Of a DNA stretch of 46,166 bases, positions 3,065-40,218 are shown one piece after another. This stretch comes from a phage. The notes below the pieces were generated by a model. The model worked only from the letters and a program-made list of their open reading frames with translations, was not told the DNA's origin and searched no databases. Where the stretch lies: assembly GCA_017760785.1 (NCBI GenBank), contig GCA_017760785.1_4320.1. One strand, given 5' to 3'. The translations under genes were made by a program, and so were the position numbers. The first letter of the stretch is position 1, and each line of letters opens with the position of its first letter.

Positions 3065-3102
3065 CTATTCATCGAAACGAAACGCACAAAGAGAGAAAGA
3101 AA

Positions 3103-3297
3103 ATGGCTACTATCTTTACTGGTAAAATCTACGAATCACGCAAAACTGGTTATGAATATGAATTAGCAATCACCGCTGAGGGTTATGTTCTTGACGATGG
3201 TGAAGGTTATGCATTCGAAGTTAGCCCAACATACAAAGACGACCTGGAAACTGTTAAAAACGCATATGGTGAAAAATTTGATGAGGTATCGGAATAA
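3103..3297 (+). CDS. hypothetical small protein
   Basis: ORF preceded by TAGCAC motif promoter and purine-rich SD. Confidence 0.5.
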   Translation: MATIFTGKIYESRKTGYEYELAITAEGYVLDDGEGYAFEVSPTYKDDLETVKNAYGEKFDEVSE

Positions 3298-3521
3298 TGG
3301 CAATTTTTACATTTGAAAATCAATGGGAAGTTTTCCAGACGATGGTTGTTGAGGAGCTCAGCAAAGCTAAGTATAACAAGGGGGATGCGTGGTATTTGGC
3401 TGCATCACTTGATATGAGTTTCGAGGAAGACTACCTGAACACCGATATTGAAACATGGCGTGACCGTATGGTTGCTGATATCGAAGAAATGAAGAAAGAT
3501 TGCCCGGAGGATTTCTTATGA
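3297..3521 (+). CDS. hypothetical small protein
   Basis: ORF; start overlaps previous stop. Confidence 0.45.
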   Translation: MAIFTFENQWEVFQTMVVEELSKAKYNKGDAWYLAASLDMSFEEDYLNTDIETWRDRMVADIEEMKKDCPEDFL

Positions 3522-3706
3522 TTGGCATCTGCGTAGAAACAAATGGCCACTTTACACTGCTTGAGGATTACGAAATTAATTTCGATTCATACTCAATAAC
3601 ATTGCTAAGCGACTTCGGGTGTTATTGGTTCATTTATGATCAAGGTGATGGTTACTACGGTTGCGTAGATGCAAACGGAAAAGAAGTTAGTTTTTTGGTT
3701 GAATAG
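3518..3706 (+). CDS. hypothetical small protein
   Basis: ATGA overlap with previous stop; ends in TAG of next motif. Confidence 0.4.
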   Translation: MIGICVETNGHFTLLEDYEINFDSYSITLLSDFGCYWFIYDQGDGYYGCVDANGKEVSFLVE

Positions 3707-3748
3707 CACCCTTATTTGTCATTGGTGCAGCATGTAAATTTATATAAT
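3704..3748 (+). promoter_or_regulatory. variant motif promoter (TAGCAC half-site, TATAAT)
   Basis: half motif plus -10 before 3763 ORF. Confidence 0.4.
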
Positions 3749-3762
3749 TAGGAGTATACAAC

Positions 3763-3891
3763 ATGAATAAGGCAAAAATTATCGCTGATATGCTTAAGAT
3801 TGCCGACCGTCTGAATAAAATCGTTGCGGAGATGGAGATCAGAAAGCAAGACATGATCACCAAATCCAAACGACAAACCTCCACTCTTTGA
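3763..3891 (+). CDS. hypothetical 42-aa protein
   Basis: hand-translated ORF below track cutoff; own motif promoter and AGGAG SD. Confidence 0.4.
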   Translation: MNKAKIIADMLKIADRLNKIVAEMEIRKQDMITKSKRQTSTL

Positions 3892-3896
3892 ATAGA

Positions 3897-3939
3897 TAGC
3901 ACTTTTTGTTAAAACTAAAATCCACGGATGGATTATATT
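3897..3939 (+). promoter_or_regulatory. motif-type promoter (TAGCACTTTTTGTTAA, TATATT)
   Basis: motif plus -10 at standard spacing. Confidence 0.5.
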
Positions 3940-3971
3940 AAACACATCAGCAACGAAGAGGATTTTGAATA

Positions 3972-4097
3972 ATGAAAATTGTAGACAAAGAGATTTTCGA
4001 GATTGCGAAGATTTATGCAAAACAAGCAGTTAGGGATAATGACAATTATTGCTGGATGTTCGCTAAAGAATACCTGAAAATGGCTTACGGATTATGA
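3972..4097 (+). CDS. hypothetical 41-aa protein
   Basis: hand-translated ORF below track cutoff; motif promoter at 3897. Confidence 0.4.
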   Translation: MKIVDKEIFEIAKIYAKQAVRDNDNYCWMFAKEYLKMAYGL

Positions 4098-4342
4098 TAG
4101 TTGAAACCGGACGCGCCGCTGTATGGGCGCATTGTGGAGAGGCTGGCTTGCAAGATGACATTAAGCATATATCCAGCTTCTTTTACATAAAAGACATTAG
4201 TGTCGTGTTCAATGGCAAATTCTCTTACATGAATGAGCGCCCAAGAAAATACGTAAGAGTTAAGCCAGGTGTTAGAATTGATGTTAACGAGTTCCTTAAA
4301 TCTGAGGGATTCAAGTTTAAGATAACGAAGCCCAAGGGTTGA
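4094..4342 (+). CDS. hypothetical small protein
   Basis: ORF; start overlaps previous stop. Confidence 0.4.
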   Translation: MIVETGRAAVWAHCGEAGLQDDIKHISSFFYIKDISVVFNGKFSYMNERPRKYVRVKPGVRIDVNEFLKSEGFKFKITKPKG

Positions 4343-4344
4343 TC

Positions 4345-4491
4345 ATGAAGCCGCACGAATATTCAGCGTTAGTTAATGGGTTGCTTGAGGTTGCTATAAA
4401 ATTCAAGGATACGCAGCAGTTAAGAGAGCAGCTATCACGAGAATTTTCAAGGCATGGTATTAGACCGAACCATAAGATGAAAAAGGATTGA
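4345..4491 (+). CDS. hypothetical 48-aa protein
   Basis: hand-translated ORF between track ORFs. Confidence 0.35.
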   Translation: MKPHEYSALVNGLLEVAIKFKDTQQLREQLSREFSRHGIRPNHKMKKD

Positions 4492-4493
4492 GT

Positions 4494-4745
4494 ATGTTGG
4501 GTTTAGATTTTCAGCCAGAGCATTACGATTTAGTGCATGGGCAAAGTGGTGCGAAGTTTAGAGCGATACCTATTACTGATTGGTTCCCTCCGGACTATGT
4601 GGACGTGAACGCAAAAACTAAAGAATGTAAGTTGGTCCAGATTTATTATTCTCCAGCGTGTGGAAACCTTTGCATGACTGACCTTGAACAGAAGCTAACA
4701 ATTAGTGCTGATTTGATTGACTACTGGTTAAAAGAAGTTGAATGA
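4494..4745 (+). CDS. hypothetical small protein
   Basis: ORF; first ATG at 4494 (track start 4488 is TTG). Confidence 0.45.
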   Translation: MLGLDFQPEHYDLVHGQSGAKFRAIPITDWFPPDYVDVNAKTKECKLVQIYYSPACGNLCMTDLEQKLTISADLIDYWLKEVE

Positions 4746-4828
4746 GAGCCCTAACACTAGTAGCATTAGTCCCACTGTTTAGCTTTACTATCTTACACTT
4801 TATCGTAATGAATTAAGGAACTTATATA

Positions 4829-5959
4829 ATGGCAACTGCAAAGATTAGCAACGGACAACTACGCGAAGAACTGGCAAATGGCATGACCAACAAGGCAATC
4901 GCAGAGAAGTACGGAATGAACATTCGCAACGTTGAATTGCGTCGCAGTAAATTGGCTAAGAGTGGAGAGTTGCACGGGAACCCAGGTATCAAGAAGTTAG
5001 TTCCTGACGGTTATTTGGTCAAAGGTACGTCAACCATGATTGATGCTGATGGAAACGAGAAGATTCGCTGGGTTAAGACCTCAATTGATAATGAGCGACT
5101 TGAGGTTTTAATGGAGCAAGCTCGAGAAGCATTCTGTTCTGAGTTGCCAAAAGCAGATGTAGTCACCCACTCAGGTAATGAAGTTAACTCAGAACTAATG
5201 ACTCTTTATCCGATTTTCGATATTCATATCGGTATGATGGCACATCGTCATGAGTCTGGTGAGAATTATGACACGAACACCGCAGAGGAATTAATGGCAT
5301 CATATTTTGACCATTCAATTTCTGTATCTCCAGCCTCAGGGAAAGCCGTGATTTTAGTTGGTGGCGACTTCCTTCACTCTGATGGACTGGAAGCGGTAAC
5401 TCCATCAAGTGGTCACTGCCTTGATCAAGATAGTCGATATGCTAAGTTAGTTTATGTGGCAATTCGCTCAATTCGCGGCGCTGTAGAGAAGATGCTTAAG
5501 AAGCACAGGGAGGTCGAGATTCAAATCATAGAGGGGAACCATGACCAAAGTGGCATGATTTGGCTTCGCGCAGCAATGGCTGCATTTTATGAAAACGAGA
5601 GTCGCGTGCTTGTTGATACCAGTCCGGCAATCATGCATAAAACACGATTTGGCTCAACATTGCTTGGTTACACTCATGGCCACACCATGAAGAAAGCCGA
5701 TGGTCGACTTGCAGCAATGGCAACTGACTACCGAAAAGACTTTGGTGAATGTGAATTTGTTTACTGCCACTCCGGCCATTTCCATCATGCCACTGTTACA
5801 GAGTGCACTCTCGGGATTGATGAGGTTCATCCAGCCCTGGCTAGTAAGGACGCATATGCGGCGCGTGGAGGGTGGCGTTCATATCGACAAGCGGCTGCAA
5901 TTGTTTACCACAAGAACTTTGGCGAGGTTGGTCGACACATTTATCGACCTGGCATGTAA
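4829..5959 (+). CDS. calcineurin-like metallophosphoesterase with N-terminal HTH-like region
   Basis: motifs DIHIG, GGDFLHSDG, GNHD, GHxH; 376 aa. Confidence 0.65.
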   Translation: MATAKISNGQLREELANGMTNKAIAEKYGMNIRNVELRRSKLAKSGELHGNPGIKKLVPDGYLVKGTSTMIDADGNEKIRWVKTSIDNERLEVLMEQAREAFCSELPKADVVTHSGNEVNSELMTLYPIFDIHIGMMAHRHESGENYDTNTAEELMASYFDHSISVSPASGKAVILVGGDFLHSDGLEAVTPSSGHCLDQDSRYAKLVYVAIRSIRGAVEKMLKKHREVEIQIIEGNHDQSGMIWLRAAMAAFYENESRVLVDTSPAIMHKTRFGSTLLGYTHGHTMKKADGRLAAMATDYRKDFGECEFVYCHSGHFHHATVTECTLGIDEVHPALASKDAYAARGGWRSYRQAAAIVYHKNFGEVGRHIYRPGM

Positions 5960-5960
5960 A

Positions 5961-5976
5961 TAGCACCTTTTGTTAA
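5961..5976 (+). promoter_or_regulatory. motif copy TAGCACCTTTTGTTAA, -10 unclear
   Basis: motif after stop of 4829-5959; hairpin downstream. Confidence 0.35.
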
Positions 5977-6032
5977 TAAAGCCTCAAAGGATTGAGGCAA
6001 AATAAATAAACATTAACGAGATGAGATTTTAA

Positions 6033-6506
6033 ATGATTTACGTATTTGATATCGATGGAACAATAGCTAATAATGAGCATAGAAGTCACCTTCTACCATC
6101 TAGTAACCTTCACCTGACTTCAAGTTGGAGCAATTACAACAGGGCCTGCTGGGGTGATTCCCCAATAATTCCAATGATAAACATGATGAATACGTTAGCC
6201 GACTTATCGCCAGTTTACATCATTACCTCAAGAAGTGACGAAGTTGAATGGATGACGCTTGAGTGGCTTCAGGATAATGATATTGAGTATGATTCTATAT
6301 ACATGAGAAGTCGACATGACAACAGAAAAGATTACAAAATGAAAGAGGAATGGCTTAATGAAATCAGTGGTGGCGATAAAAGCAATGTGGTTATTTTTGA
6401 AGATAACCCACAAGTAATTAAGCACCTAAGAAGTTGCGGATACACCGTTATGGCTGTATGTGAATATGAAAAACTACCTAAAGATTGCGAATCTCACGGA
6501 GAATGA
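6033..6506 (+). CDS. HAD-family phosphatase
   Basis: N-terminal FDIDGT motif; 157 aa. Confidence 0.6.
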   Translation: MIYVFDIDGTIANNEHRSHLLPSSNLHLTSSWSNYNRACWGDSPIIPMINMMNTLADLSPVYIITSRSDEVEWMTLEWLQDNDIEYDSIYMRSRHDNRKDYKMKEEWLNEISGGDKSNVVIFEDNPQVIKHLRSCGYTVMAVCEYEKLPKDCESHGE

Positions 6507-7063
6507 AAATGACTAAATTATTTATACTTAATGGCCCAGCTGGAGTTGGTAAGGACACTATAGCGGATATCATGGTTGAGACCGGTGTAGCCAAAGAAAA
6601 GGTATCATTCAAGTCACCAATGTTTAACGTTGCAAAAGGAATGCTATCAAGCGATGAATTTGATGGATTCATCAAGAATTACGACAATAGAGACTATAAG
6701 GAATCACCTCATGGATTTCTTGTCGGTATGACAGTTCGTGAATTTATGATTTGGATTAGCGAGTCTGTAATGAAGCCAGTCTTTGGTGATGATGTTTTCG
6801 GTAAAAGGCTAGCCCAGTCACTTGGTGATGGTTGCTACATTTGCGCTGACGGTGGATTTGCTAGCGAGATTAAGCCACTGATCGACTCTGGTGTTGAGGT
6901 CACGTTAATCAGATTGCATAGGTCAGAGTACACATTTGATGGCGATAGTCGCTCATACATTCACGGTGTGTGCGCAAGAGAAATTGATGTTCGTGTTATT
7001 AGTGGTGATATTGATGGAACATCAGCATTGGTAAGGCACGTAATAAATAGCACTAATTGCTAA
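6503..7063 (+). CDS. P-loop nucleotide/polynucleotide kinase-like protein
   Basis: Walker A GPAGVGKDT; ATGA overlap with phosphatase stop. Confidence 0.55.
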   Translation: MKMTKLFILNGPAGVGKDTIADIMVETGVAKEKVSFKSPMFNVAKGMLSSDEFDGFIKNYDNRDYKESPHGFLVGMTVREFMIWISESVMKPVFGDDVFGKRLAQSLGDGCYICADGGFASEIKPLIDSGVEVTLIRLHRSEYTFDGDSRSYIHGVCAREIDVRVISGDIDGTSALVRHVINSTNC

Positions 7064-7090
7064 GAATTATAAATATCAATGCGGCACAAT
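7048..7090 (+). promoter_or_regulatory. motif-type promoter (TAGCACTAATTGCTAA, weak -10 CACAAT)
   Basis: motif then CATCGAAAAC leader before 7122. Confidence 0.45.
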
Positions 7091-7121
7091 TACCACATCG
7101 AAAACAACAGAGGGTTCAAAA

Positions 7122-7295
7122 ATGACTAAATTATACTGCGTTAAAAACAACTACAAGACGCTGCCATTTACCGTTAACCATCCTTACAATGCGGAGTACC
7201 AGGGTGATGGATATTACAAGATTTACGGCGACGATATGACGCACATCTTAGCGCCAATTGATGGTTCTTTGGTTGAATTTATTATCGCAGACTAG
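7122..7295 (+). CDS. hypothetical 57-aa protein
   Basis: hand-translated ORF; motif promoter upstream, terminator downstream. Confidence 0.45.
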   Translation: MTKLYCVKNNYKTLPFTVNHPYNAEYQGDGYYKIYGDDMTHILAPIDGSLVEFIIAD

Positions 7296-7318
7296 CGCAT
7301 CTAAAACATAGCTTTACA

Positions 7319-7347
7319 AGCGGGGGGCCTTTTGGCCCCCCTTTTTA
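7319..7347 (+). terminator. rho-independent terminator
   Basis: GGGGGGCC/GGCCCCCC stem, TTTT loop, T-run. Confidence 0.7.
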
Positions 7348-7413
7348 TGCTTCTTTTCCGAGCAGTGCTAATGTATCATTCTTTTACTAACTTAAACATT
7401 GACAAATACATAA

Positions 7414-7641
7414 ATGGAGGATCACATGAGGGAAGTAATCAATGCTGCTACGGCGTCAACTGGAGGGGCAGCGGTAACTGGTGCGGCAACTGGTCAGATG
7501 ACCATAGCGATAATCAGCCTTATCGCTTTAATCATTTTTGGTGCCTGGGGCGCTTACTGGAAGTTCAAAGATAGCCAGGCGATTCGAAGAGCGCTTGAAT
7601 CGGGAGACTTGAAAACAGCAATCAATATAAGGAGCAAATAA
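7414..7641 (+). CDS. holin, pinholin-like, possible dual start
   Basis: two Met three codons apart (7414, 7426); weak Gly/Ala-rich TMD1 plus hydrophobic TMD2; directly precedes endolysin. Confidence 0.6.
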   Translation: MEDHMREVINAATASTGGAAVTGAATGQMTIAIISLIALIIFGAWGAYWKFKDSQAIRRALESGDLKTAINIRSK

Positions 7642-8127
7642 ATGAAGCAGAAGCTGCTAATTAGCGCGGCTACGGCTGCGGCAATATACATCGCAGCTCC
7701 GCTTATTGAGCTCGTTGAGGGTGTGGAGAACAAGCCTTACATGGACATTGCCGGAATCCCTACAGTTTGTTCCGGTATTACCGGTCCAGATGTGGTCTGG
7801 GGTAAAACGTACAGCAACAGGGAATGCCGGAACCTGCTGGAGAAGCACATCAAGATTCATGCTAAGTATGTTCAGGATGCTGTAACCTACCCAATTGCAC
7901 CGCAGACAAGGGCGGCGTTAATCAGCTTTAGCTACAATGTTGGTGGTTCAGCGATGAGGAAATCAACTGCCGTTAAGTTAATTAACCAGGGTAAGATTGA
8001 GCGGGGTTGCAAGGCTCTCGGTATGTGGACAAAGGCTACAGTTAATGGCAGGAAGGTTGTCGTTAAGGGTTTAGTAAATCGCAGGAATGAGGAGATTAAG
8101 TTATGTTTAAGCGGATTGCAGCGTTAG
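7642..8127 (+). CDS. SAR endolysin, T4-lysozyme family
   Basis: N-terminal Ala/Gly-rich signal-anchor; catalytic E-x8-D-x5-T spacing. Confidence 0.75.
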   Translation: MKQKLLISAATAAAIYIAAPLIELVEGVENKPYMDIAGIPTVCSGITGPDVVWGKTYSNRECRNLLEKHIKIHAKYVQDAVTYPIAPQTRAALISFSYNVGGSAMRKSTAVKLINQGKIERGCKALGMWTKATVNGRKVVVKGLVNRRNEEIKLCLSGLQR

Positions 8128-8492
8128 TAATGTGCGTAGCTTTGTCTGGATGCTCAGCAACATCCGCACTGACCGGATTAATTGGCAGTAAGCCAGAGGT
8201 TAGCGCCCAGGCTGGCGCCGAGAACAATAAGGTTGGTGTTGGGTTAACGAACAAGTTTGACTCCAGCAACTCCAGTGAAGCCACGGTTAAAGATTCTAAG
8301 GTTGGGTCACTGGATAGCTCGAGCGGAAAAAAGACTGCTGACAACTCGATTAAGGCCTCAAGAATCACTGCCGAAAAGATTGAAATTACCAATAACGAAT
8401 CATCCGCGCTTCCGTGGGTTGGAACGGGAGCTATGGGGTTGCTGGTTTTAATTCTCATGGCATTAATCTTAAGACGTAAAAAAGCCTCCTAA
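8103..8492 (+). CDS. unimolecular spanin-like lipoprotein
   Basis: N-terminal lipobox LSGC plus C-terminal TMD and basic tail; overlaps endolysin end. Confidence 0.6.
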   Translation: MFKRIAALVMCVALSGCSATSALTGLIGSKPEVSAQAGAENNKVGVGLTNKFDSSNSSEATVKDSKVGSLDSSSGKKTADNSIKASRITAEKIEITNNESSALPWVGTGAMGLLVLILMALILRRKKAS

Positions 8493-8510
8493 TGGAGGCT
8501 ATATTTTTAG
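8480..8510. terminator. bidirectional terminator between spanin and minus-strand block
   Basis: AGCCTCC-TAAT-GGAGGCT with A-run before and T-run after. Confidence 0.65.
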
Positions 8511-8842
8511 CTAAATAACTCGTCGTCAGTCATTCCTCCTATATTCATCATCTCTTTTATGTACTTGCTTTGATACCCGTTAAGTGACTCAAAGCTAAAC
8601 TCAAATGGCCTCTTCAAGCTCCCCTTGCTAACAAACTCGCCGCACTTACCATCAATATATCCTGCAGTAAGCATCTTCGCGCAAAACTCCTTTGATGCAG
8701 CGCTGCAAAACTCTCTATGCGATAACCCTGCAGCTTTGCTGAATCTCTGAGAATCCTTGTGTTGGTAGATGAATCGCGCCAAATGCTGGCGCCTAAAGTA
8801 ACTAAAACTTTCACAGAACTTAAATATATCGAGCAGGAACAT
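8507..8842 (-). CDS. hypothetical protein
   Basis: 111-aa ORF downstream of ATPase gene on same strand. Confidence 0.45.
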   Translation of the reverse strand: MFLLDIFKFCESFSYFRRQHLARFIYQHKDSQRFSKAAGLSHREFCSAASKEFCAKMLTAGYIDGKCGEFVSKGSLKRPFEFSFESLNGYQSKYIKEMMNIGGMTDDELFS

Positions 8843-8845
8843 TCG

Positions 8846-10429
8846 TCACCCCAGCAATCGTGGATTAATGTAAACCTTATCACCAATCAGGCACGTATAG
8901 TTTTTCTCATCAAGCATTGGCAGTAAGTGATCTTTAATCTTCGTCATTACTCCAGCTTGGGCCTCGAATGGCTTAACTTTACGAGCAGCTTCATATAATG
9001 AACGAATGCCAACTACTCCCTTCCCATTTTTTCCTTGCTTGATCAGAATATCAATCAGCTTATTCATCTCGGCATTGTCTCCAGCGTGACCGGCGGCGTT
9101 AGCGGATGACAAATAAGTCTTACTCAGTTCCTGGAACATAATTACAGCTTCTTGCATGGTGTCGAGCTCAATCTCTCTGGATTTCTGTGGGCTCCCACCG
9201 TTATGGTTGAACCAGTTACGAACAGTATGAAGTACCGCCGCAATCCTGATGGCCTGCTTATCGAACTTACCCAGAGCGCCGCGCAACATTGTGTGTGAAT
9301 ACTTACCTCCGTCAGCAAGGTGCGGTTCCATTTCCTGGCGTGCTCTGTTGAGGTATTTCATTGCTGAGCTGCTGACTGTCAACTTTACTTCTTGCTCATT
9401 CATTATCTCATGAACTAATCGGAAGTAATCAGCCTTCAGCCCTCCGTCGATAGGCTCGTAAGTTGAATCTCCATTCTCGTCAACGAATACACGCTCGCCC
9501 AGGAATGACTTTTCACGTACAAGCAGGAAACGTTCCGATACACCGATACCTCGCGCACCAGCATTCATGATCGCATTGATTGTCTCATCCTGCGCAATTA
9601 CAGATATACAGCCCATGGCAACGAAACTCATGTTGTTTTCAGCGTTGGCGCGCGCGATAGATACGTTACCCGCATCCCATGCCTTGAGCACGAGCTCGCT
9701 GTTGGTCTTCTTCGAGCCGTCACCGTAAGTCATTCCCAATAGTGAGTTGACGCTCGTTGCCTCATCCGAGATAACCGCAAAGTTGCCCTGGCGGTTGTTT
9801 ATTCGCGCAAGACCTTCAGGTGTGGTATCTGACACTGGAAATACGATATCGCAAAGTTTCTCTAGCTTTTCCTCAAGTTCCTCTTTCTCCTCGAATAGGG
9901 AGGCCATCTCTGACGGAGATTTTTCCTGCTTCATCTCTTTGGATAATGCAGATAGCTTAGCCATAATCTTTTTTCGCTCACGCTTTCGCACTTCATTCAG
10001 CCGCTCAGTCTCGGCAATCATTGGAGCAATGGAGAGTGAGTTAATTGCTGATTTACCAGTCGATGGTGGCTGACTGGTCACGACGTACAAAGAGGTTGGC
10101 TGCTGGGTCCCGTGATACTCAACAGTAAAGCGGCCCAGCATTGCAGCGGAAACACACCCCAGGAAGTGCATGTATGCGGATGACTCAGGAAACTGAACTG
10201 AACGAGCAATGTTGGCTGACAGTTTTCCAACAACATCAATATCATTGCCGAGTGAGATTACAGGATATTTGTCATTTGCAGCATCAATCTCTACTGGCGC
10301 TTTCCAGAATGATTGAGACTGACGATAGCCATTAGCATTAATAGCGACGCGCAAAGGTGGGAGGTTGTCTGCGGAAGCGATTGCCATAACCTGTTCAATA
10401 GATAGTTTATCTTCGTTGAAATCGAACAT
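8846..10429 (-). CDS. P-loop NTPase, DUF3987-like (assignment uncertain)
   Basis: Walker A-like PPSTGKS; GGAGA SD before ATG 10429; own motif promoter; 527 aa. Confidence 0.6.
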   Translation of the reverse strand: MFDFNEDKLSIEQVMAIASADNLPPLRVAINANGYRQSQSFWKAPVEIDAANDKYPVISLGNDIDVVGKLSANIARSVQFPESSAYMHFLGCVSAAMLGRFTVEYHGTQQPTSLYVVTSQPPSTGKSAINSLSIAPMIAETERLNEVRKRERKKIMAKLSALSKEMKQEKSPSEMASLFEEKEELEEKLEKLCDIVFPVSDTTPEGLARINNRQGNFAVISDEATSVNSLLGMTYGDGSKKTNSELVLKAWDAGNVSIARANAENNMSFVAMGCISVIAQDETINAIMNAGARGIGVSERFLLVREKSFLGERVFVDENGDSTYEPIDGGLKADYFRLVHEIMNEQEVKLTVSSSAMKYLNRARQEMEPHLADGGKYSHTMLRGALGKFDKQAIRIAAVLHTVRNWFNHNGGSPQKSREIELDTMQEAVIMFQELSKTYLSSANAAGHAGDNAEMNKLIDILIKQGKNGKGVVGIRSLYEAARKVKPFEAQAGVMTKIKDHLLPMLDEKNYTCLIGDKVYINPRLLG

Positions 10430-10459
10430 TACTTCTCTCCGTATTGTTTCTGAGCGGCC

Positions 10460-10502
10460 ATTATATCAACGACCGCTTATAATACATTATCAATTTGTGC
10501 TA
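10460..10502 (-). promoter_or_regulatory. motif-type promoter (TAGCACAAATTGATAA, 21 bp, TATAAT)
   Basis: minus strand; drives 8846-10429 ATPase gene. Confidence 0.5.
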
Positions 10503-10503
10503 T

Positions 10504-10857
10504 TTACAGGTATTGCGCTTCGAAATGGTACGTATGGCAAAGAGTGTAGAAACCAACATCATCGCTACGGTATAGCTGCCAGGCATTTCCATCCTCATCG
10601 TAAATGTAGCCGGCAGACTGACCAAGCCCCGCATGAAGATTTACTTGGTAACGCTTATTCTCTTTAAAGTCTTTTTTAACTCCTGACTTGTGGTTAACTT
10701 TAGTGCAATAAAGCGTCTTGGTCTTGATATATTTACCACGCTCTTCCAGGCTAACCCATTTGCCATCTTTCTTGATTTGCTCTACACCATCTTTAACGCG
10801 AGCTTTGCATAGTACGTTTTCGTTGCTAATGAAGTTTTTAGTCAGTGTAGTAGTCAT
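10504..10857 (-). CDS. hypothetical protein
   Basis: ORF; first ATG at 10857 (track start is GTG). Confidence 0.45.
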   Translation of the reverse strand: MTTTLTKNFISNENVLCKARVKDGVEQIKKDGKWVSLEERGKYIKTKTLYCTKVNHKSGVKKDFKENKRYQVNLHAGLGQSAGYIYDEDGNAWQLYRSDDVGFYTLCHTYHFEAQYL

Positions 10858-11018
10858 TTTGTTACTCTCTTCGTTGTCCACATGAATTTGTTTGGTACTG
10901 ATTTGCGCACGATGCACACCACAATCTTATCAACCTTCTGAACTAAACCGTAAATCTTTCCGTCTAGCGACGCCCTGAAAACCGTCCACTCCATTTCGTT
11001 GTGAAAGTTATCGAACAT
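10854..11018 (-). CDS. hypothetical 54-aa protein
   Basis: hand-translated ORF directly after motif promoter; stop overlaps next start. Confidence 0.3.
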   Translation of the reverse strand: MFDNFHNEMEWTVFRASLDGKIYGLVQKVDKIVVCIVRKSVPNKFMWTTKRVTK

Positions 11019-11050
11019 GCTTGCTTACTCTCTTTCGTTTCGATGAGGTA

Positions 11051-11093
11051 ACTATACAACAAAAGCACCGAAGGGCTTTAGCAATTAGTGCTA
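11051..11093 (-). promoter_or_regulatory. motif-type promoter (TAGCACTAATTGCTAA, 21 bp, TATAGT)
   Basis: minus strand; CATCGAAACGA leader follows. Confidence 0.55.
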
Positions 11094-11471
11094 TACGCCA
11101 TAATCTATCTTAACCAGTTTCCCTTTGTAGTATCCAAAGTTCTTTGGAAAAGCGTCGTACTCAAAGAAATCACGGTCAAGCGTTCTATATTCATCATTAT
11201 CAACGTCATCATATAGCTTTTGCAGGTCGGATTTAAAAAGCTCCTCATTATCAACTGGCTCAGCCTTATGCATCACAACCATTAGGCCGAACCTGTTTGA
11301 GTATGCTATTGGGCACAGGTTCTTGTTATCAACCCCCTTCCATTGGCCCTCAGTCATGTTGCTGAGCATCCCCTGCACAAAGGCCTTCCAGGAATTAAAT
11401 CTCGGGAACTTAATCGCATACTTTTTTGTGATTAGTACAAGCCTGGTCCCACCACTTCTATTTAGTTTCAT
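11091..11471 (-). CDS. hypothetical protein
   Basis: 126-aa ORF with AAGGA SD; stop lies in TAGCAC motif. Confidence 0.5.
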   Translation of the reverse strand: MKLNRSGGTRLVLITKKYAIKFPRFNSWKAFVQGMLSNMTEGQWKGVDNKNLCPIAYSNRFGLMVVMHKAEPVDNEELFKSDLQKLYDDVDNDEYRTLDRDFFEYDAFPKNFGYYKGKLVKIDYGV

Positions 11472-11616
11472 TCCTTGCCTTCTCTATCGCCTTCAGCATA
11501 ATCTCGTGAGACTCAAGCAAGTCTTCGCGGAACCAGTCACCGCATGGCCAGCCTTTTCCGCTGTAGGCGCTTACTACCTCAAGGTCGAAGTAATTTATCT
11601 CAGATGGTAGTAGCAT
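11458..11616 (-). CDS. hypothetical 52-aa protein
   Basis: hand-translated ORF filling a gap between minus-strand genes. Confidence 0.3.
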   Translation of the reverse strand: MLLPSEINYFDLEVVSAYSGKGWPCGDWFREDLLESHEIMLKAIEKARNETK

Positions 11617-11619
11617 CTT

Positions 11620-11811
11620 TTACGCCTCCATAATGTATTCAAACTCGGATGTAAACAATGGAAGATCCCTTCCGGCAGGAGTCTTGATACTAACCTCGCC
11701 CGACTCATACTGGTGAATAACTTCGTAAACTCCCCCGATCTCCACCCCGTAGAATTCTCTCTCGTATTTACCGTGTTTTGTTTGAAAGTTGATTAATTTA
11801 ATCTTCATCAT
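11620..11811 (-). CDS. small protein, paralogue of 12227-12421
   Basis: shares YG-x3-GGVYEV-x3-YE core with 12227-12421 product. Confidence 0.45.
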   Translation of the reverse strand: MMKIKLINFQTKHGKYEREFYGVEIGGVYEVIHQYESGEVSIKTPAGRDLPLFTSEFEYIMEA

Positions 11812-12047
11812 TTCACCTCATCAAAAGTTGCTATTCCAGGAATAAACATACCAACCTTCCAGCCAGTAATGGCAATCCAACCAGAATCGTGCTTGTGCGG
11901 TCGCTCAGCGCCATTAATCAACCATTCGTTAGGGATTACCTTCCCCTTAATGATTAGCGGCTCAGCGTCGTATACAGAGCCTTTAACGAATGGTGTTAAG
12001 GCTTTCTTGTCAGTGCTGGTAATGCAGTTAGTGCAGCGAATTTTCAT
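11808..12047 (-). CDS. hypothetical small protein
   Basis: ORF; overlap with neighbouring gene. Confidence 0.45.
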   Translation of the reverse strand: MKIRCTNCITSTDKKALTPFVKGSVYDAEPLIIKGKVIPNEWLINGAERPHKHDSGWIAITGWKVGMFIPGIATFDEVK

Positions 12048-12057
12048 ATCTCAATCC

Positions 12058-12237
12058 TCAAATAAATGGTAGGCACTCTTCGCACCCAAGCCCATCACAG
12101 CACAGGAATTCATTCCCTGACTGGAATTTCTTAGCCAGGTCAATATCCAATTTTCCGCGCAACACAAGGTCAGTGTAATCTTCATTAAGCCCAATCAGTG
12201 TGCACTCGCGACGTAATTCATCTTTATCAATCTTCAT
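12058..12237 (-). CDS. hypothetical Cys-rich small protein
   Basis: C-terminal CCDGLGCEEC; start at internal ATG with GAGG SD. Confidence 0.4.
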   Translation of the reverse strand: MKIDKDELRRECTLIGLNEDYTDLVLRGKLDIDLAKKFQSGNEFLCCDGLGCEECLPFI

Positions 12238-12421
12238 AGATTTCAACCTCTCTATTGTAGAGCATAACATTACGGCCATACTTGTTAACCACTACAATTG
12301 CCTCAAGTTCAGCATAAGTAGTTACCACTTCATACACGCCGCCTTGATTGATGCCATAGTACTCATACACTTCATCATAAATATCACCACAGAAATCAAG
12401 CTCAATAACCTTTACTTTCAT
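12227..12421 (-). CDS. small protein, paralogue of 11620-11811
   Basis: first gene after minus-strand motif promoter at 12449-12492. Confidence 0.5.
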   Translation of the reverse strand: MKVKVIELDFCGDIYDEVYEYYGINQGGVYEVVTTYAELEAIVVVNKYGRNVMLYNREVEIYED

Positions 12422-12448
12422 ATCTATGTCCTCGTTGCTGATGAGCTA

Positions 12449-12492
12449 ACTATAGCGTCACCACATTAACATGTCTTTAGCAAAAAGTGCCA
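12449..12492 (-). promoter_or_regulatory. variant motif promoter (TGGCACTTTTTGCTAA, TATAGT)
   Basis: minus strand; drives 12227-12421. Confidence 0.5.
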
Positions 12493-12720
12493 TTCGTTAG
12501 ATTTATGGATTGTTGCAGATATTGAAATGATTAACATGATTATTGCACATATAGTAATATTGCTTCCGATGCAATGATTTTTTTGATTGTTGCGAAAAGT
12601 GAAATAAAGTGGTGAGTGAGTGAATGAAAGATGGATGGACTACCATACAAGTTGATTTTGATTCTGTCCGAGCCGCTTTGCGTATACGCGTTATGAAAGT
12701 TATGCCGTGTAGATAAACCT

Positions 12721-13020
12721 TTCCGCGGAAATTCATCCACGCCGTACCACGCCAGGTTACGCCATAGTTACACTATAATATCTATATATAACAACCTCTT
12801 AGTATTATTATTATTATTATAAATATTACTATGTATATCATGTAACCAATATGCCGGAGGGGGTCGATAGTTTTTTCTATGAAAATGACAATTTCTATAT
12901 ATATAAGGATAGGTGTATACCCTCCGCGTTTTCCGCGGAAATTCATCTACAGGCAAATTACACGAGCTATAGCTGGGCTGGCACGCCAAAAAACGTAACC
13001 AGCGCCAATATAAACACAAG
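12721..13020. repeat. AT-rich divergent control element, copy 1
   Basis: 17-bp direct repeat TTCCGCGGAAATTCATC at 12721 and 12931; (TAT)6 at 12803-12820; ~70 percent identical to 39790-40110. Confidence 0.7.
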
Positions 13021-13096
13021 ATAACACTTGATAACGTGTAGACGTGTGTTATTATGGGTTCACCTTAACGAATGGGAACCAATCAGGAGTAATAAA

Positions 13097-13947: not shown

Positions 13948-14145
13948 AAGATGAAACTCGCTTGCCTCGTTAGGGATAATGTTTATGTCAACCCGGCAAT
14001 CCTGGAGGAAGATTGGGAACCTAACTTCAAAGCCTACGAAGGTGAGCATCCTAGTAGACTACCATACCACTTAATGTACAGTGAGGACTAGGTGGGGATG
14101 GCGATTGAGCTCTACCGGAAAGCTAAATCAATCCTTAGCGGTGAA

Positions 14146-14188
14146 TAGCATGAATTGGTAAATCTTCCGCGAGTCCATTTGCTATAGT
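14146..14188 (+). promoter_or_regulatory. variant motif promoter (TAGCATGAATTGGTAA, 21 bp, TATAGT)
   Basis: same geometry before 14216 ORF. Confidence 0.45.
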
Positions 14189-14215
14189 GGACTCATTGAA
14201 GCGAAACAACAAATC

Positions 14216-14920: not shown

Positions 14921-14950
14921 TAGTTCACACCAAACGAGAGGGGATTAAAA

Positions 14951-15797: not shown

Positions 15798-15827
15798 TAC
15801 CCCATCGAAACGAACGAGGAATCAGAA

Positions 15828-16573: not shown

Positions 16574-16603
16574 TACCCTATCAACACAGCGAGAGATTGA
16601 TAA

Positions 16604-17758: not shown

Positions 17759-17769
17759 CGTCTGCAATA

Positions 17770-26700: not shown

Positions 26701-26733
26701 TAACTCATCGAAACGAAATGAGAGATTAAAGAA

Positions 26734-30669: not shown

Positions 30670-30712
30670 TAGCACAAAATGGTAAAGCCAAAAGGATTTG
30701 GCTTGCTATAAT
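30670..30712 (+). promoter_or_regulatory. motif-like promoter (TAGCACAAAATGGTAA, TATAAT)
   Basis: immediately after tape-measure stop; drives HNH gene. Confidence 0.45.
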
Positions 30713-30740
30713 CAACTCATTAAAATCATGAGGTGATAAA

Positions 30741-31612: not shown

Positions 31613-32368
31613 ATGTTAAGTCCAAAGTTTGAAAATCAGTTGCAAAGCCTTTTCCCAGGCGAGATTGTGACTCTAATTCAGGTTGACGGAACGTCGTTTG
31701 GTTCTCGCGTTTACAATTTCCACAATGAGAACATTTCATACACACCTGAAGAAATCATGCTAGCACAAATGAATGGCGAGCCACTACCAGAGAAAACCAT
31801 CACCTTCCGTGGTGAAGAGTACGGCCCAAGACCGTTCGGAATCTCTGGCATAAATATGACTTCTGACGGCAAAGCCAACAAAGTGACGCTAACAGTATCA
31901 AACGTAGACCAGCGAATTAGCGCATTGATTCGAACATACAACGGACTTGTTAAAGCTAAGGTTACCATCTGGATTACTACGCGAGATAACATCAATGAAG
32001 ACGGAAGCATTGCTGATGGGGATTATCGCAGATTCGTTTACTTCATTGAGCGGCCGAAGCAGGTTGATTATAAAACAGCGTCATTTGAGCTAAGCTCACC
32101 TATGGATATGGACGGCATTTATATTCCAGCGAGACTTGTTCAGTCTGTTTGCTATTTCGCCTCCAGGGGCTGGTATCGCAGCGGCAATGGCTGCACCTAT
32201 GCTGGAAATCGATACTTCGATAAAGATGATAACCAGGTAGATGACCCTTCATTAGACTTCTGTGCCGGAACGGTCAACAGTTGCAAGATTAGGTTTGGTG
32301 AGAATAATCAGTTAGATTTTGGCGGCTGTGCGGCAGCTAGCCTTCAGGCTAAAGCAAATCAATCATAG
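31613..32368 (+). CDS. minor tail protein, lambda gpL-like
   Basis: C-terminal Cys cluster; ATG 31613 with GGAGA SD. Confidence 0.7.
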   Translation: MLSPKFENQLQSLFPGEIVTLIQVDGTSFGSRVYNFHNENISYTPEEIMLAQMNGEPLPEKTITFRGEEYGPRPFGISGINMTSDGKANKVTLTVSNVDQRISALIRTYNGLVKAKVTIWITTRDNINEDGSIADGDYRRFVYFIERPKQVDYKTASFELSSPMDMDGIYIPARLVQSVCYFASRGWYRSGNGCTYAGNRYFDKDDNQVDDPSLDFCAGTVNSCKIRFGENNQLDFGGCAAASLQAKANQS

Positions 32369-37722: not shown

Positions 37723-38679
37723 TTAGTACATGTTTGGTATGTATGGCAGCTGCATTGATATGTTTGTATTAAATGGAAATTGTGCGCCAGTCTGTGTTGA
37801 ATAGTTTCCAATTACACTACCAAGCTCCGACCTGACAGATCCATTAGACATTACGACACCTTTGTATCTAAGGTTGTTATATCCGCCAGTTACGCGAGTG
37901 TAAGCGCCAGTCCTAAGTATCGGGAAGTATCCATTACCTATCGACTGAAATGAGTTTGATATCTGAATGAATCCACCCAACACAAAAGGCCTTTTAACAG
38001 TAGAGAATACAACCTGGCCGGCCGGGTTTACTATTGTTATGCCTGGCCCGCCAACTGGTGCGGTGTTGTTGAATATAACCAAATCAACGACAACTGATGC
38101 CGAAACGTTATCTATGCCGCCGTATGTGTTATCCCTGCACAGAAGCCTGGTTCCATCAAACTCGAGCGTAACATTTGGATTACTCCATCTACCAAAAGGG
38201 ATTCCAGTTATTGGTAGTGTATAGCTGCCGTTTACAGTAACCCTTCCAACAAACTGTGCTGTCATCAGCCTTGAATTTGTCGTTATAGATACAAAGTCAG
38301 TTGAGTTAGCAACCAGTATACCTTGCCCAGTCGATGCTCCAGTTATCTCGAAGCAGTTGCCAGAGAAGTTTATCAGCCTTCCATTTGCGCCGTTAAAGTT
38401 GCTAATGTTTATTCTTCCCTGCGTATTTGATACCCTCTGGAATCCATTCATATAATAAACTTCCGGTATAACATCGAAATCGATAACTTCAACCGCCTTT
38501 ATTGGTAAAGCGAATGCTGTTGATCCATTAGTTTGGTTAAGCCCAAATGTCAACCCCCCAGATTCAGAAGCAAATTTTGTAGTTGGAATAGAACCGGTCA
38601 CATTAGGTGCTCTTAATCCAGCTGTTATATGCATTGCAGGTCTACCATCATTTAGATCGATTAAAATACCCTGAGGCAT
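37723..38679 (-). CDS. hypothetical Asn/Gly/Thr-rich protein, coupled to Cor-like gene
   Basis: 318 aa from ATG 38679 (TAATG overlap with upstream stop). Confidence 0.5.
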   Translation of the reverse strand: MPQGILIDLNDGRPAMHITAGLRAPNVTGSIPTTKFASESGGLTFGLNQTNGSTAFALPIKAVEVIDFDVIPEVYYMNGFQRVSNTQGRINISNFNGANGRLINFSGNCFEITGASTGQGILVANSTDFVSITTNSRLMTAQFVGRVTVNGSYTLPITGIPFGRWSNPNVTLEFDGTRLLCRDNTYGGIDNVSASVVVDLVIFNNTAPVGGPGITIVNPAGQVVFSTVKRPFVLGGFIQISNSFQSIGNGYFPILRTGAYTRVTGGYNNLRYKGVVMSNGSVRSELGSVIGNYSTQTGAQFPFNTNISMQLPYIPNMY

Positions 38680-38921
38680 TATTTCCACTCCTTAGAACCA
38701 TGGTCTTTAACTGAGCCACCGTAACCGCCACCAGTAGCCTTAATTCCATCGTAGCGCACGTCAACTTCTCCAGCCGGTACAACCACACCACTTTTCCATT
38801 TAGCCACGCACACGCCATTTGCTTGCGTTGCACACCAGCCATCCGTACGTGGACCAGAAGAGCAACCTACCATCATGATTGCTGCTGCGGCGATGATTGC
38901 TGATTTGATGAAGTTAGTCAT
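38679..38921 (-). CDS. small lipoprotein, Cor-like superinfection-exclusion candidate
   Basis: 80 aa from ATG 38921 (GAGGTA SD); signal peptide with MVGC lipobox-like site. Confidence 0.5.
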
Positions 38922-38960
38922 TTTATATACCTCATTAAGTTTTTTCGTTTCGATGGAGTA

Positions 38961-39003
38961 ATAGTACCGCATCCTTGCGGATTGTCTTTAGCAAACCGTG
39001 CTA
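38961..39003 (-). promoter_or_regulatory. motif-type promoter (TAGCACGGTTTGCTAA, 21 bp, TACTAT)
   Basis: minus strand; CCATCGAAACGAAAAA leader before Cor-like gene. Confidence 0.5.
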
Positions 39004-39677
39004 TTCGCAATAAATACAGCTCTTGCAAATCCACGAGGTGTAAGGCTGCGAATTACCTTTGTTTTCTTGCTCTTGCCTCCCAGCTTCTTGTATTGTTCAG
39101 AGAATCCATCGTCAACGACCACATTGATCGCCTCAGGCCAATTAAAGCCATTACCTGACCAGATGCATGTCTTCTTAGGATATGCGTCGCGAGGCTTTAT
39201 TAGGTCGCTAAAAAACGGGTGTAAATCATCTTCAGGCAAGTATCCACCAAACTCGTAAGGGTGGAGTGTATTGTCAGGTTTTCGCCAAAGAGATGAAAGC
39301 ACGCTAATTGGGTTCTCAATCATATAAGGTACGCCGTACTTCTCAGCCAGGTTAAAAGCAACCTTGCAAGTCTCTGCCGCCTCAATTTGAAAATTAGGAT
39401 TGGCCAGGCGCTTGCGATCAAAGTGTCTTGACCCACTCACGGCTAAATCAGTGCATGGGGGGAATGCCATGATAAAATCAGGCTTCACATCAAAATAAAA
39501 ATTGGCATCTATCCATGCGTTAACGTAGGTGATGTTCTCATGCTCAAATTTTGCATTTAAGTCACCATAGCTCCCGTGGTCAGACTCATCAAAGTTGAAG
39601 CAGTAGCAAGTATGTCCGGCTTCAGCCCAATCCTTTACAGCCAGACCAGAACCATCAAATAAAGACCAGATAACCAT
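38988..39677 (-). CDS. compact DNA C5-cytosine methyltransferase-like protein
   Basis: FDGSG, FPPCT, ENP motifs at C5-MTase-like spacing; ATG 39677 (alternative TTG 39710 lies inside the -10). Confidence 0.5.
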   Translation of the reverse strand: MVIWSLFDGSGLAVKDWAEAGHTCYCFNFDESDHGSYGDLNAKFEHENITYVNAWIDANFYFDVKPDFIMAFPPCTDLAVSGSRHFDRKRLANPNFQIEAAETCKVAFNLAEKYGVPYMIENPISVLSSLWRKPDNTLHPYEFGGYLPEDDLHPFFSDLIKPRDAYPKKTCIWSGNGFNWPEAINVVVDDGFSEQYKKLGGKSKKTKVIRSLTPRGFARAVFIANSTVC

Positions 39678-39711
39678 TTTTAAATCCTCTATCGTTGCTT
39701 GTGTGACCAAC

Positions 39712-39751
39712 TATACCAGGTTTTGCGGATTAGTTTTAGCTATTCGTGCCA
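39712..39751 (-). promoter_or_regulatory. variant motif promoter (TGGCACGAATAGCTAA, 20 bp, TGgTATAGT)
   Basis: minus strand; spacer shares AATCCGCAA with 38961-39003 promoter. Confidence 0.5.
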
Positions 39752-39789
39752 TTGCATACACGTAACCGTTGTAACTAGATGTATACAAT

Positions 39790-40110
39790 CTCATCCGCGG
39801 AAAATGATATACGCGATATTACGCCAATTTACGCATTGGTTACATTAAAATATCTATATATATCAACACTTTACTCTTATTATTATTATTATATATATTA
39901 CTGTGTATATCATGTAACTACTTCTATAGAGTGTTCCGGTTATAATTTTCTAATATGTACATTTATACAGTATCTAGCGACAAGCATACCAATGCACCAA
40001 CCCCCGCGAGAAATGGTATACACTATATACACACTGGTTACATTGAGCTATGCCTCGGATGGGATGCCAAAAAGCGTAACTAACGCCAATATCTACACAT
40101 AATTACAATG
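39790..40110. repeat. AT-rich divergent control element, copy 2
   Basis: shares ATATCTATATATA, (TAT)5 at 39878-39892, TATTACTGTGTATATCATGTAAC and GCCAAAAAGCGTAAC...CGCCAATAT blocks with copy 1. Confidence 0.7.
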
Positions 40111-40135
40111 ATTCACACGTAAGTCTGAATCAACG

Positions 40136-40179
40136 ATTGGATAAACCAATTGGACTGTCTATGGTGCTGAATATATAGT
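40136..40179 (+). promoter_or_regulatory. alternative palindrome ATTGGATAAACCAAT upstream of TATAGT
   Basis: perfect 5-N5-5 inverted repeat at same distance from -10 as TAGCA palindromes. Confidence 0.45.
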
Positions 40180-40218
40180 TAACCCATCGAAAGCAAACAA
40201 CCACAGAGAGATACAGAA

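Follow-up and report, generated by a model that had tools for sequence, protein, structure and literature searches.

The 46,166-nt phage contig GCA_017760785.1_4320.1 (NCBI GenBank assembly GCA_017760785.1; hereafter “the window”, i.e. the whole stretch of DNA that was analysed) carries a short repeated element, CATCGAAACGA, at the predicted transcript starts of a family of promoters. We give somewhat better than even credence to the reading that CATCGAAACGA is the start-site and initial-transcribed segment of sigma70 promoters of the host RNA polymerase, shaped for start selection and escape. The unit to which it belongs is best read as a promoter/stem-loop (PeSL)-type cassette. As judged from the letters, the module TACyCC|ATCGAAACGAAAC (13-19 nt) is identical in at least five unrelated gamma-proteobacterial phage groups (T1-like, T4-type, phi80-type pL, FelixO1-like, and PB1-like). 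Because the same start recurs in unrelated phage groups, the module most likely serves the host RNA polymerase and not a special mRNA leader. The main interest lies in this cross-family identity, and in the conversion of unexplained T1-family repeats into a testable promoter model.

The window is a complete or near-complete genome of a T1-like siphophage (Drexlerviridae, Braunvirinae), with Veterinaerplatzvirus phages such as vB_EcoS-12210I as its closest relatives (~87% nucleotide identity). It contains five exact copies of CATCGAAACGA and six matches with at most one mismatch, compared with 0.70 expected, and six were reached in 0 of 100 shuffles, so that the repeated element described at promoters by an earlier reading of the letters alone (the sequence-only reading) is real. 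The sixth match, at 17088-17098 (-), is not at a promoter. The order of the units is the same for all five exact copies, i.e. the box TAGCACnnnTTGnTAAA is followed after a spacer of 20 nt by a -10 hexamer (TATAGT or similar) and then by a discriminator of 6 nt that closes with the motif's own C; in their 3′ part the units contain ATCGAAACGA, a Shine-Dalgarno (SD) motif, and an ATG 24-32 nt past the A. Five nucleotides separate the -10 hexamer from every exact copy, which makes the C position -1, the A position +1, and the module -1 to +10, and the C-1/A+1 step lies 6-7 nt past the hexamer in all five, as in sigma70 start sites. The sequence-only reading had put the element directly after the -10, where the variable discriminator in fact intervenes. 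Its coordinates were right within small offsets, with the plus-strand copy placed at 26705 actually beginning at 26706. It had also assigned all copies to one type of promoter, which is correct for the exact copies, all behind box units, and incorrect for the copy at 40185, which follows a boxless promoter with a poor -35. The units with exact copies, named by box coordinate, are the following:

Unit 3022: CATCGAAACGA at 3070..3080 (+); box at 3022-3038, -10 TATTAT at 3059-3064, open reading frame (ORF) from 3103.
Unit 11093: CATCGAAACGA at 11035..11045 (-); box at 11077-11093, -10 TATAGT at 11051-11056, ORF from 11018.
Unit 15755: CATCGAAACGA at 15803..15813 (+); box at 15755-15771, -10 TATAGT at 15792-15797, ORF from 15828; the discriminator TACCCC pairs with GGGGTA of the spacer.
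Unit 26658: CATCGAAACGA at 26706..26716 (+); box at 26658-26674, -10 TATAGT at 26695-26700, ORF from 26734; located within the tail gene region, past a terminator.
Unit 39003: CATCGAAACGA at 38945..38955 (-); box at 38987-39003, -10 TACTAT at 38961-38966, lipoprotein ORF from 38921.

The discriminators of these units differ (ctattc, tacctc, tacccc, taactc, and tactcc), and the spacers and the sequences past +12 are likewise mutually unrelated. The five exact copies are therefore not duplications, and a recent duplication as their origin was ruled out. The window contains 18 box units, plus one boxless promoter (-10 at 40174) with the start sequence, i.e. about 20 promoters genome-wide. For comparison, canonical -35/-10 pairs in the window (1-20000) are at chance level (42, with 41.7 in shuffles). 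It appears that the phage relies mainly on the box units as promoters, also for its earliest genes, and they mostly stand before small ORFs without known function.

For the family-wide analysis, IMG/VR was searched with a pattern of box plus TATAGT, which yielded ~120 stretches of T1-like contigs, and these were then scanned with a looser pattern. Together with T1, TLS, 12210I, and the window, they gave 527 unique box promoters; the Rtp locus was left out of the earlier comparisons and included in the direct alignments of orthologues. T1, TLS, and 12210I carry the same promoter units as the window. The consensus of the 527 promoters is the box ATAGCACnnnTTGnTAAA, 20 nt, (TGn)TATAAT, TACCCC, and ATCGAAACGAAAC, or in detail AAATAGCACtaaTTGcTAAA, N13, tG, g, TATAAT, TACCCC, and ATCGAAACGAAAC. 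The most frequent bases are C-1 (73%), A+1 (85%), T+2 (63%), A+5..+7 (69-72%), and G-14 (84%), and purines occupy +5..+7 in 75-89%. T is scarce, with 3-14% at +4..+17 and 3-7% at +4..+11; the depletion of U extends to the SD motif and ends past it. The exact 11-mer at -1..+10 is found in 89 of the 527 promoters, and 170 have at most two mismatches to it. Further starts recur in the family, namely ACACCAA, ATCGACA, ATTGAAG, and ATACCAA. The register of the motif to the -10 is constant in all leader-length classes, from 20 to 40 nt, and there is no fixed distance to the start codon. In ~1.2 Mb of T1-like DNA, 135 of 147 unique occurrences of CATCGAAAC are at box plus -10 promoters, and four more are at ordinary -35/-10 promoters.

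The start sequence is under purifying selection, which is strongest at +1 and +5..+7. Across 25 clusters of orthologous promoters, the nucleotide diversity is 0.035 at +1, 0.02-0.044 at +5..+7, and ~0.09 at +2..+4; from +8 onward it is 0.11-0.16, i.e. at the level of the spacer (0.10-0.17), and third codon positions have a value of 0.216. In orthologues of units 3022, 26658, and 39003, spacers and discriminators have been replaced wholesale, while the start has been kept (ATCGAAACGAAA or ATCGAAACGAAG), and orthologues of the 11093 promoter differ in spacer and discriminator and retain ATCGAAACGGGA. The sequence-only reading had tied its proposal to conservation in relatives; given how strong that conservation is in the consensus, in orthologue diversity, and in the alignments, the proposal does not fall on this point.

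The placement of the element at the head of the predicted transcript was also borne out. The A of CAT lies 7 nt past the -10, and the annotated starts of the T7 promoters are at the homologous A in the same contexts, i.e. TACAGCC|ATCGAGAGG for A1 (context CC|ATCGA) and GTACCAC|ATGAAACGAC for A3 (context CAC|ATGAAACGA). Lambda pL, GAGCAC|ATCAGCAGG, is similar in style, and units 3897 and 12492 of the window likewise start with CATCAGCAACG. A literature search found no published mapping of transcription start sites for T1-like phages. For the PB1-like Pseudomonas phage 14-1, ONT-cappable-seq data have been published (PMC10914365); the A of CTCATCGAAAC is a candidate for the start in this group.

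A scan of IMG/VR for TAnnnT-N5-CATCGAAACGAA gave 124 matches, only 13 of them with a box. Among the 86 unique non-box matches, 69% have at least four of six matches to TTGACA at 16-18 bp, compared with 12.5% of control TAnnnT sites; with -35 matches so far above the control, they are real sigma70 promoters. The phi80-type lambdoid phages, with their pL promoter, form the largest group. In phi80 itself, TACTCC-ATCGAAACGAAACATCGAC (start ATCGAAACGAAAC) comes after the annotated -10 of pL, TTTAAT, which is paired with a -35 annotated as TTGACC; nutL boxA lies ~59 nt and the N gene ~410 nt downstream. Its TACTCC-ATCGAAACGAAA is identical to that of unit 39003 of the window, which thus has the same discriminator, TACTCC. 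A 34-nt consensus of the module matches 1459 phage records. Examples from other groups are:

kaaroe, an RB49-like Krischvirus: TTGACA-17-TAAGAT-ACTCCC-ATCGAAACGAAAC, and also ACCCCC-ATCGAAACGAAAT and ACTCCC-ATACCAAAAC.
RB43, a Pseudotevenvirus: TATATT-ACACAC-ATCGAAACGAAAC.
KP15, a Klebsiella Slopekvirus: a full T1-type unit with box and GGGGTA..TACCCC hairpin, annotated as “putative middle promoter”.
S13/LPCS28, Cronobacter, 182 kb: several -35/-10 promoters, followed by CATCGAAACGAAA.
SunLIRen, an Erwinia phage of the Ounavirinae (FelixO1-like): TTGACA-17-TAAAGT-AACCCC-ATCGAAACGAAAC.
phiKTN6, a Pseudomonas Pbunavirus (PB1-like): TATAGT-TACCTC-ATCGAAACG.
234P10, a Vibrio phage: TATTAT-TACCTC-AACGAAACGAAAC, a one-base variant.

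The KP15 unit (NC_014036 10042-10085, minus strand) reads ATAGCACTTTTTGTTAAA-acattctGGGGTAgctttgg-TATAGT-TACCCC-ATCGAAAC, and its annotation adds “discovered using MEME”. The ORFs behind the KP15 modules have no homologue among the sampled T1-like ORFs. In phiKTN6, two promoters (KP340288 64610-64680 and 64922-64992) have a 10-bp stem around the -10, the 3′ arm of which ends in CTCATC and is followed by GAAAC; the stems differ by compensatory changes (GATGAGGTGA..TTACCTCATC versus GATGAGATGA..TCATCTCATC). The annotated MEME motif of this phage (71 nt) extends through the start sequence.

The first ~10 transcribed bp alter promoter escape by about three orders of magnitude (Heyduk & Heyduk 2018, PMC5961368). 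In that study, slow-escape sequences contain 2-3 T, especially TG, within the first ~7 bp, the initiating polymerase pauses near +6, GG or GA near +6 favours escape, and -10-like sequences inhibit it. The family start has the features of a fast-escape sequence by these rules, i.e. few T or TG early, purines near +6, and no -10-like element; ATCTGTGTGA serves as an example of a T/TG-rich +3..+10 in contrast to the native start. The sequence-only reading had taken the conservation to go beyond what RNA polymerase needs, a claim that does not stand, since an effect of this size of the first ~10 bases is known and fits a T-free, purine-rich start.

In the reading proposed here, a cassette has the following order: the box, which holds the stop codon of the upstream gene; a variable 20-nt spacer, usually with a hairpin formed alone or with the discriminator; a -10 that is often extended; a discriminator rich in C; the start, CAT; an initial transcript with much A and little T; a ribosome-binding site; and the ATG. 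The start, with C-1 and A+1 followed by TCGAAACGA, would fix the start point by CA(+1)T. The purine run G+4 A+5 A+6 A+7 and the near-absence of T to about +17 would avoid the pyrimidine-purine initiation pause near +6, and the T-poor start would also avoid -10-like sequences. With both avoided, the polymerase would clear the promoter quickly. As by-products, the leader would be almost structure-free, and the identical 12-25 bp beside the -10 might act as a homology patch for recombination of cassettes and their spread between phages.

Most box units contain hairpins in the spacer region. The spacer can pair with the discriminator and, in some units, also with the first transcribed bases, which places the -10 in a loop of 12-19 nt, and the arms vary but covary; examples of spacers that pair with the discriminator are at 15772-15802, 14163-14193, 10455-10485 (-), and 3039-3080. 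The native combinations of spacer and start fold better than swapped ones, with energies of -5.72 versus -4.20 kcal/mol in the window (p about 0.001), -8.72 versus -4.34 in T1, and -8.53 versus -4.30 in TLS; in the latter two no permutation was as low. Complementarity between columns, calculated for 510 promoters, is highest for the six pairs from -19:-6 to -24:-1 (z 7-10). For 139 promoters, this helix in fixed register has 52.4% of cells paired, compared with 42.2 +/- 1.2 in shuffles (0 of 500 reached the observed value), and its covariation score is 0.301, compared with 0.174 for shuffles and 0.14-0.21 for slid registers. The -10 is enclosed in the loop in about half of the units, while in the others the hairpin is inside the spacer and ends at the -10. 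In units 3022, 11093, and T1 6532, TTCGGTG/GTCGGTG is the pairing partner of CATCGAA/CATCGAC itself. The folds of the two strands are equally stable, with no significant difference between sense and antisense, so that the hairpin may form either in DNA or in RNA. What the sequence-only reading saw as the “TTAcCC” part of the repeat is the discriminator, which often pairs as the 3′ arm of a hairpin enclosing the -10.

The T1 spacer hairpins coincide with annotated rho-independent terminators (38973-39001, 39998-40024, and 41980-42007). The five hairpins of the window that are wholly in the spacer (3914-3933, 5978-5997, 16548-16567, 30687-30706, and 38967-38986 (-)) all have an aGGAt or cGGAt loop (CCGCAaggaTGCGG, TGCCAcggaTGGCA, GCCAAAaggaTTTGGC, etc.), the shape of CsrA sites; T1 and TLS spacer hairpins have GAAA or UACG loops instead. 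GATC is present in 21% of the family spacers (positions -28 and -19) versus 8% expected. Across the window it is depleted (74 versus ~174 expected), and a Dam methylase is encoded at 41549-42013.

Several observations weigh against a role of CATCGAAACGA in start selection and escape. The position of +1 in T1-like phages would follow from the spacing and from the analogy with T7, and the effect of this start on escape would follow from general rules. CG at +3/+4 and +8/+9 is a pyrimidine-G step, the kind that is able to pause. An identity of 13-19-mers across unrelated groups exceeds what is expected of a loose physical optimum, and might stem from cassettes spreading horizontally or from a specific function at the RNA level. 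Furthermore, the structure predicted for the leaders is significantly weaker than that of their own shuffles (-2.15 versus -3.11 kcal/mol), which is an RNA-level property under selection. A role of the leader in the RNA, as a U-poor and poor RppH/RNase E substrate that confers stability, as a structure-free landing site for ribosomes, or as the site of a host or phage RNA-binding factor, is possible but rather unlikely. The leaders are A/C-rich and nearly unstructured also in comparison with genome-like random sequences (-6.54 kcal/mol), the U depletion reaches as far as the SD motif, and an exact identity across families arises more easily by specific recognition than by a loose optimum. Nevertheless, the motif is anchored to the -10 and not to the SD motif or the ATG, at leader lengths of 20-40 nt; phi80 pL and T7 A1/A3, far from genes, use the same start; the selection is focused on +1 and +5..+7 and fades from +8; and no Rfam family covers the leaders. 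Translation control, which the sequence-only reading had listed among the possible leader functions, is disfavoured because of this anchoring, the use far from genes, and the absence of complementarity to 16S rRNA, the longest match being 6 nt, the modal value for shuffles. For the same reasons, i.e. no fixed distance to the SD motif or start codon and a 16S match no longer than in shuffles, a 5′-UTR translational enhancer was rejected. We regard it as quite unlikely that the 5′-terminal AUCGAAACGAAAC is an RNA tag for a conserved host factor (protecting or licensing early mRNAs, or letting them escape nucleases), or that the patch is, as DNA, the dedicated target of a recombination system.

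Another reading takes the cassette as a mobile module in which the patch of -10 and start supplies the homology for exchange of gene cassettes, as in the shuffling of PeSLs. The whole T1-type module, GGGGTA..TACCCC hairpin included, is present in the T4-like KP15 before unrelated ORFs, the start module occurs in many unrelated phage groups, and the small ORFs without known function behind most window promoters are in accord with such a role; in RB49/phi1, the sections of PMC2839356 on these elements place crossovers between the -10 and the SD motif/ATG and report mini-circles. A homology patch, however, needs no particular sequence or register, whereas A+1, A+5..+7, and the avoidance of T are constrained here in a way that fits initiation. 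From copy to copy, the sequence between box and -10 is unrelated, which limits the runs of identity to ~17 and ~25 bp, and the same start is found at single-copy promoters such as phi80 pL. We therefore judge it unlikely that recombination accounts for the element; it probably explains part of the spread of the module, e.g. the KP15 unit, and not the position-specific constraints. The element could also be conserved as the arm of a hairpin that encloses the -10 and acts as attenuator, terminator, or processing signal for read-through transcripts. The better folding of native pairings, the covarying helix, and the three units in which the start itself pairs agree with this, but the arms vary and compensate while the start stays fixed, so that the spacer adapts to the start and not the reverse. 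In addition, the in-register helix spans -6..-1 and not +1..+10, and units 3897, 16531, and 39003, with the hairpin wholly in the spacer, keep the same start. This makes the hairpin arm highly improbable as the explanation; the hairpin accounts for the “TTAcCC” discriminator, not for the start sequence. Least credible of all, and close to negligible in our view, is an operator at +1..+12 for a phage Cro-like regulator (39-512, -) that would shut the promoters off. The phage does encode a helix-turn-helix regulator with a weak match to P22 Cro (E 8.8e-6, below the Pfam cut-off), and TCGAAACGA has a short TCG..CGA symmetry; against this, there is no palindrome of operator size, the element also occurs in phage families that do not encode this regulator, and the conservation fades at +8. 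Overall, a start-site and escape segment of host sigma70 promoters is the reading we prefer.

The remaining promoters of the window with variants of the element or with other starts are listed below; the two-mismatch variants are those at 7096, 40185, and 14194, the last of which was absent from the list of the sequence-only reading.

7096..7106 (+): variant CATCGAAAACA (two mismatches); box at 7048-7064, -10 CACAAT at 7085-7090, ORF from 7122; the discriminator TACCAC is that of T7 A3.
40185..40195 (+): variant CATCGAAAGCA, no box; -10 TATAGT at 40174-40179, ORF from 40219.
14194..14204 (+): variant CATTGAAGCGA, ATTGAAG subtype; box at 14146-14162, -10 TATAGT at 14183-14188, enclosed by the hairpin GAGTCC...GGACTC.
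3945..3955 (+): start CATCAGCAACG; box at 3897-3913, -10 TATATT at 3934-3939; the context of the first 10 nt is the same as in lambda pL, CACATCAGCA.
12433..12443 (-): start CATCAGCAACG; box at 12476-12492, -10 TATAGT at 12449-12454.
14926..14936 (+): start CACACCAAACG, ACACCAA subtype; box at 14878-14894, -10 TATAGT at 14915-14920.
16579..16589 (+): start TATCAACACAG, ATCAACA subtype; box at 16531-16547, -10 TATAAT at 16568-16573, spacer hairpin TGCCAcggaTGGCA.
42063..42073 (+): start TATCAACAACA; box at 42015-42031, -10 TATGAT at 42052-42057.
10444..10454 (-): start CTCAGAAACAA; box at 10486-10502, -10 TATAAT at 10460-10465, hairpin GCGGTC...GGCCGC around the -10.
30718..30728 (+): start CATTAAAATCA; box at 30670-30686, -10 TATAAT at 30707-30712, spacer hairpin GCCAAAaggaTTTGGC.

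The starts at 14926, 16579, and 42063 had been listed as looser versions of the element. With 5-7 mismatches, they represent other recurrent subtypes of the family (ACACCAA, ATCAACA) rather than degenerate copies. The boxless promoter at 40185 has a poor -35-like TTGGAC (three of six matches to TTGACA), an 18-nt spacer, and TATAGT. An inverted repeat, ATTGGataaaCCAAT, lies over its -35 region (window 40135-40195), before the recombination genes (40219 onward), and may be an operator. For the ORF 38679-38972 (-) behind unit 39003, the mechanical start at 38972 falls within the promoter, and the likely start is the ATG at 38921, giving an 80-aa lipoprotein. A region of ~290 nt (17038-17330), non-coding and apparently structured, lies upstream of the tRNA-Arg gene (17331-17408) and has no Rfam match; it contains half a box (TTGCTAAAAA, ~17095) and no clear unit. 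This tRNA-Arg (17331-17405 per Rfam) is the only one in the window and the sole family that reached the gathering score.

The upstream gene regularly ends inside the box, with the TAG in aaaTAGcac or the TAA in gcTAAa as its stop codon (at 3022-3024, 14878-14880, 16531-16533, 32366-32368, and 7061-7063). It follows that the whole intergenic region of ~75 nt is the promoter cassette. A 2024 paper on TLS described a 21-nt repeat, aaATAGCACnnnTTGnTAAAA, in TLS, T1, Rtp, and Rogue1 as of “function unknown”, and suggested stoperators, enhancer sites, or UP elements; its tables on the repeat give neither -10 nor start, and only three sigma70-like promoters were found. The box ATAGCACnnnTTGnTAAA of the 18 units (e.g. 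at 3022-3038, 11077-11093, 14878-14894, 16531-16547, 38987-39003, and 42015-42031) matches the marbox and points forward, has its centre near -40.5, and covers part of the -35 position, at a distance of 18 bp from the -10. The published marbox consensus (MarA/SoxS/Rob) is AYnGCACnnWnnRYYAAAY, and the window contains 11 matches to it with at most one mismatch, compared with 1.28 expected. The box agrees with a class II marbox in consensus, orientation, overlap with the -35, and distance to the -10 (18-19 bp). Its geometry is identical to that of the class II marbox of E. coli micF (ACAGCACTGAATGTCAAAAC, 18 bp, TAGAAT); the marbox of the mar operon itself reads ATGCCACGTTTTGCTAAATC in consensus orientation. 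Unlike a marbox, the phage box has the extra invariant bases TTG. No literature link between marboxes and T1-like phages was found. On this sequence likeness, the box as a putative MarA/SoxS/Rob site is a lead, not a result. Three other assignments of the box were rejected: a sigma54 promoter (TGGCAC-N5-TTGC), as in this reading of the letters the spacing of GG to GC is 2 bp short and most boxes have TAGCAC; a T4 MotA box (TTGCTAAA), which is similar but would be 20 bp rather than 12-13 bp from the -10; and an UP element, which is incompatible with the invariant GCAC.

T1-like phages are common contaminants and candidates for therapy, and their transcription signals are essentially undescribed. 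On the present analysis, each published T1-family repeat forms the upstream half of a promoter cassette that is complete with the start element as its downstream half; this second half is under purifying selection and is shared with PeSL cassettes and with several of the classical early promoters. The result is a usable promoter model for the annotation of Drexlerviridae. The natural start sequence is a candidate for very efficient promoter escape, with a possible use in expression design. Testable ideas include a dependence of the box on Rob/MarA/SoxS and an exchange of cassettes between phage families via the common patch.

Several known systems share features with the promoters of the window. 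T5 early promoters such as PN25 reportedly have a conserved downstream transcribed region, and they resemble the window in being a strong phage promoter set with a common sequence past +1, in which the first ~10 nt would govern abortive cycling and escape. T5 N25, however, starts with ATAAATTTGAGAGAGG, which is T-rich at +6..+8, unlike ATCGAAACGA. At lambda PR′, AACGAT is a sigma70-dependent promoter-proximal pause element, which needs a -10-like AnnnT. This element is also in the first transcribed bases, and AACGA is superficially like the window start. In contrast to the lambdoid late promoter, T is nearly absent at +4..+17, and there are about 20 dispersed promoters and no single late promoter. 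A Q-type promoter-proximal pause element was rejected, as it would need a -10-like hexamer (A at position 2, T at position 6) in the first ~25 transcribed nt, and T is nearly absent at +4..+17. The early coliphage promoters T7 A1/A3, lambda pL, and phi80 pL have the same or nearly the same discriminator and start as the window, with T at +2 followed by a long T-free stretch. They differ in having good -35 hexamers, operators, and long leaders, with nut sites and genes hundreds of nucleotides away, whereas in the window short leaders of 24-32 nt lead to one or a few small genes per promoter.

The closest similarity in layout is to the PeSLs of RB49/phi1. According to the portions of Arbiol et al. 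2010 (PMC2839356) that deal with them, these consist of a stop codon in an A/T-rich stretch, a host sigma70 promoter, a stem-loop, an SD motif, and an ATG; the stem-loop occupies the interval from -35 to -10 or extends across the -10, often as GGGG..CCCC with G-T pairs, and acted as terminator or attenuator. In the same portions, the ~100-bp conservation is described as serving recombination, and the start sequence is not singled out. The window units have this layout, with the stop codon in the box (e.g. ORF ends at 3024, 14880, 16533, and 32368), a hairpin, an SD motif, and an ATG, and like the PeSLs of T4-type phages they have a short leader and are placed before small ORFs. In contrast to PeSLs, T1-family units do not have a -35 TTGACA at 16-18 bp; in its place is the 17-20-bp box, which stops 20 bp short of the -10, at 5 bp upstream of where a -35 would be. 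The hosts of PeSLs are T4-type myoviruses, whereas the window is a T1-like siphovirus. The -10, discriminator, and start are identical or nearly identical in the RB49-like kaaroe, in RB43, and in KP15.

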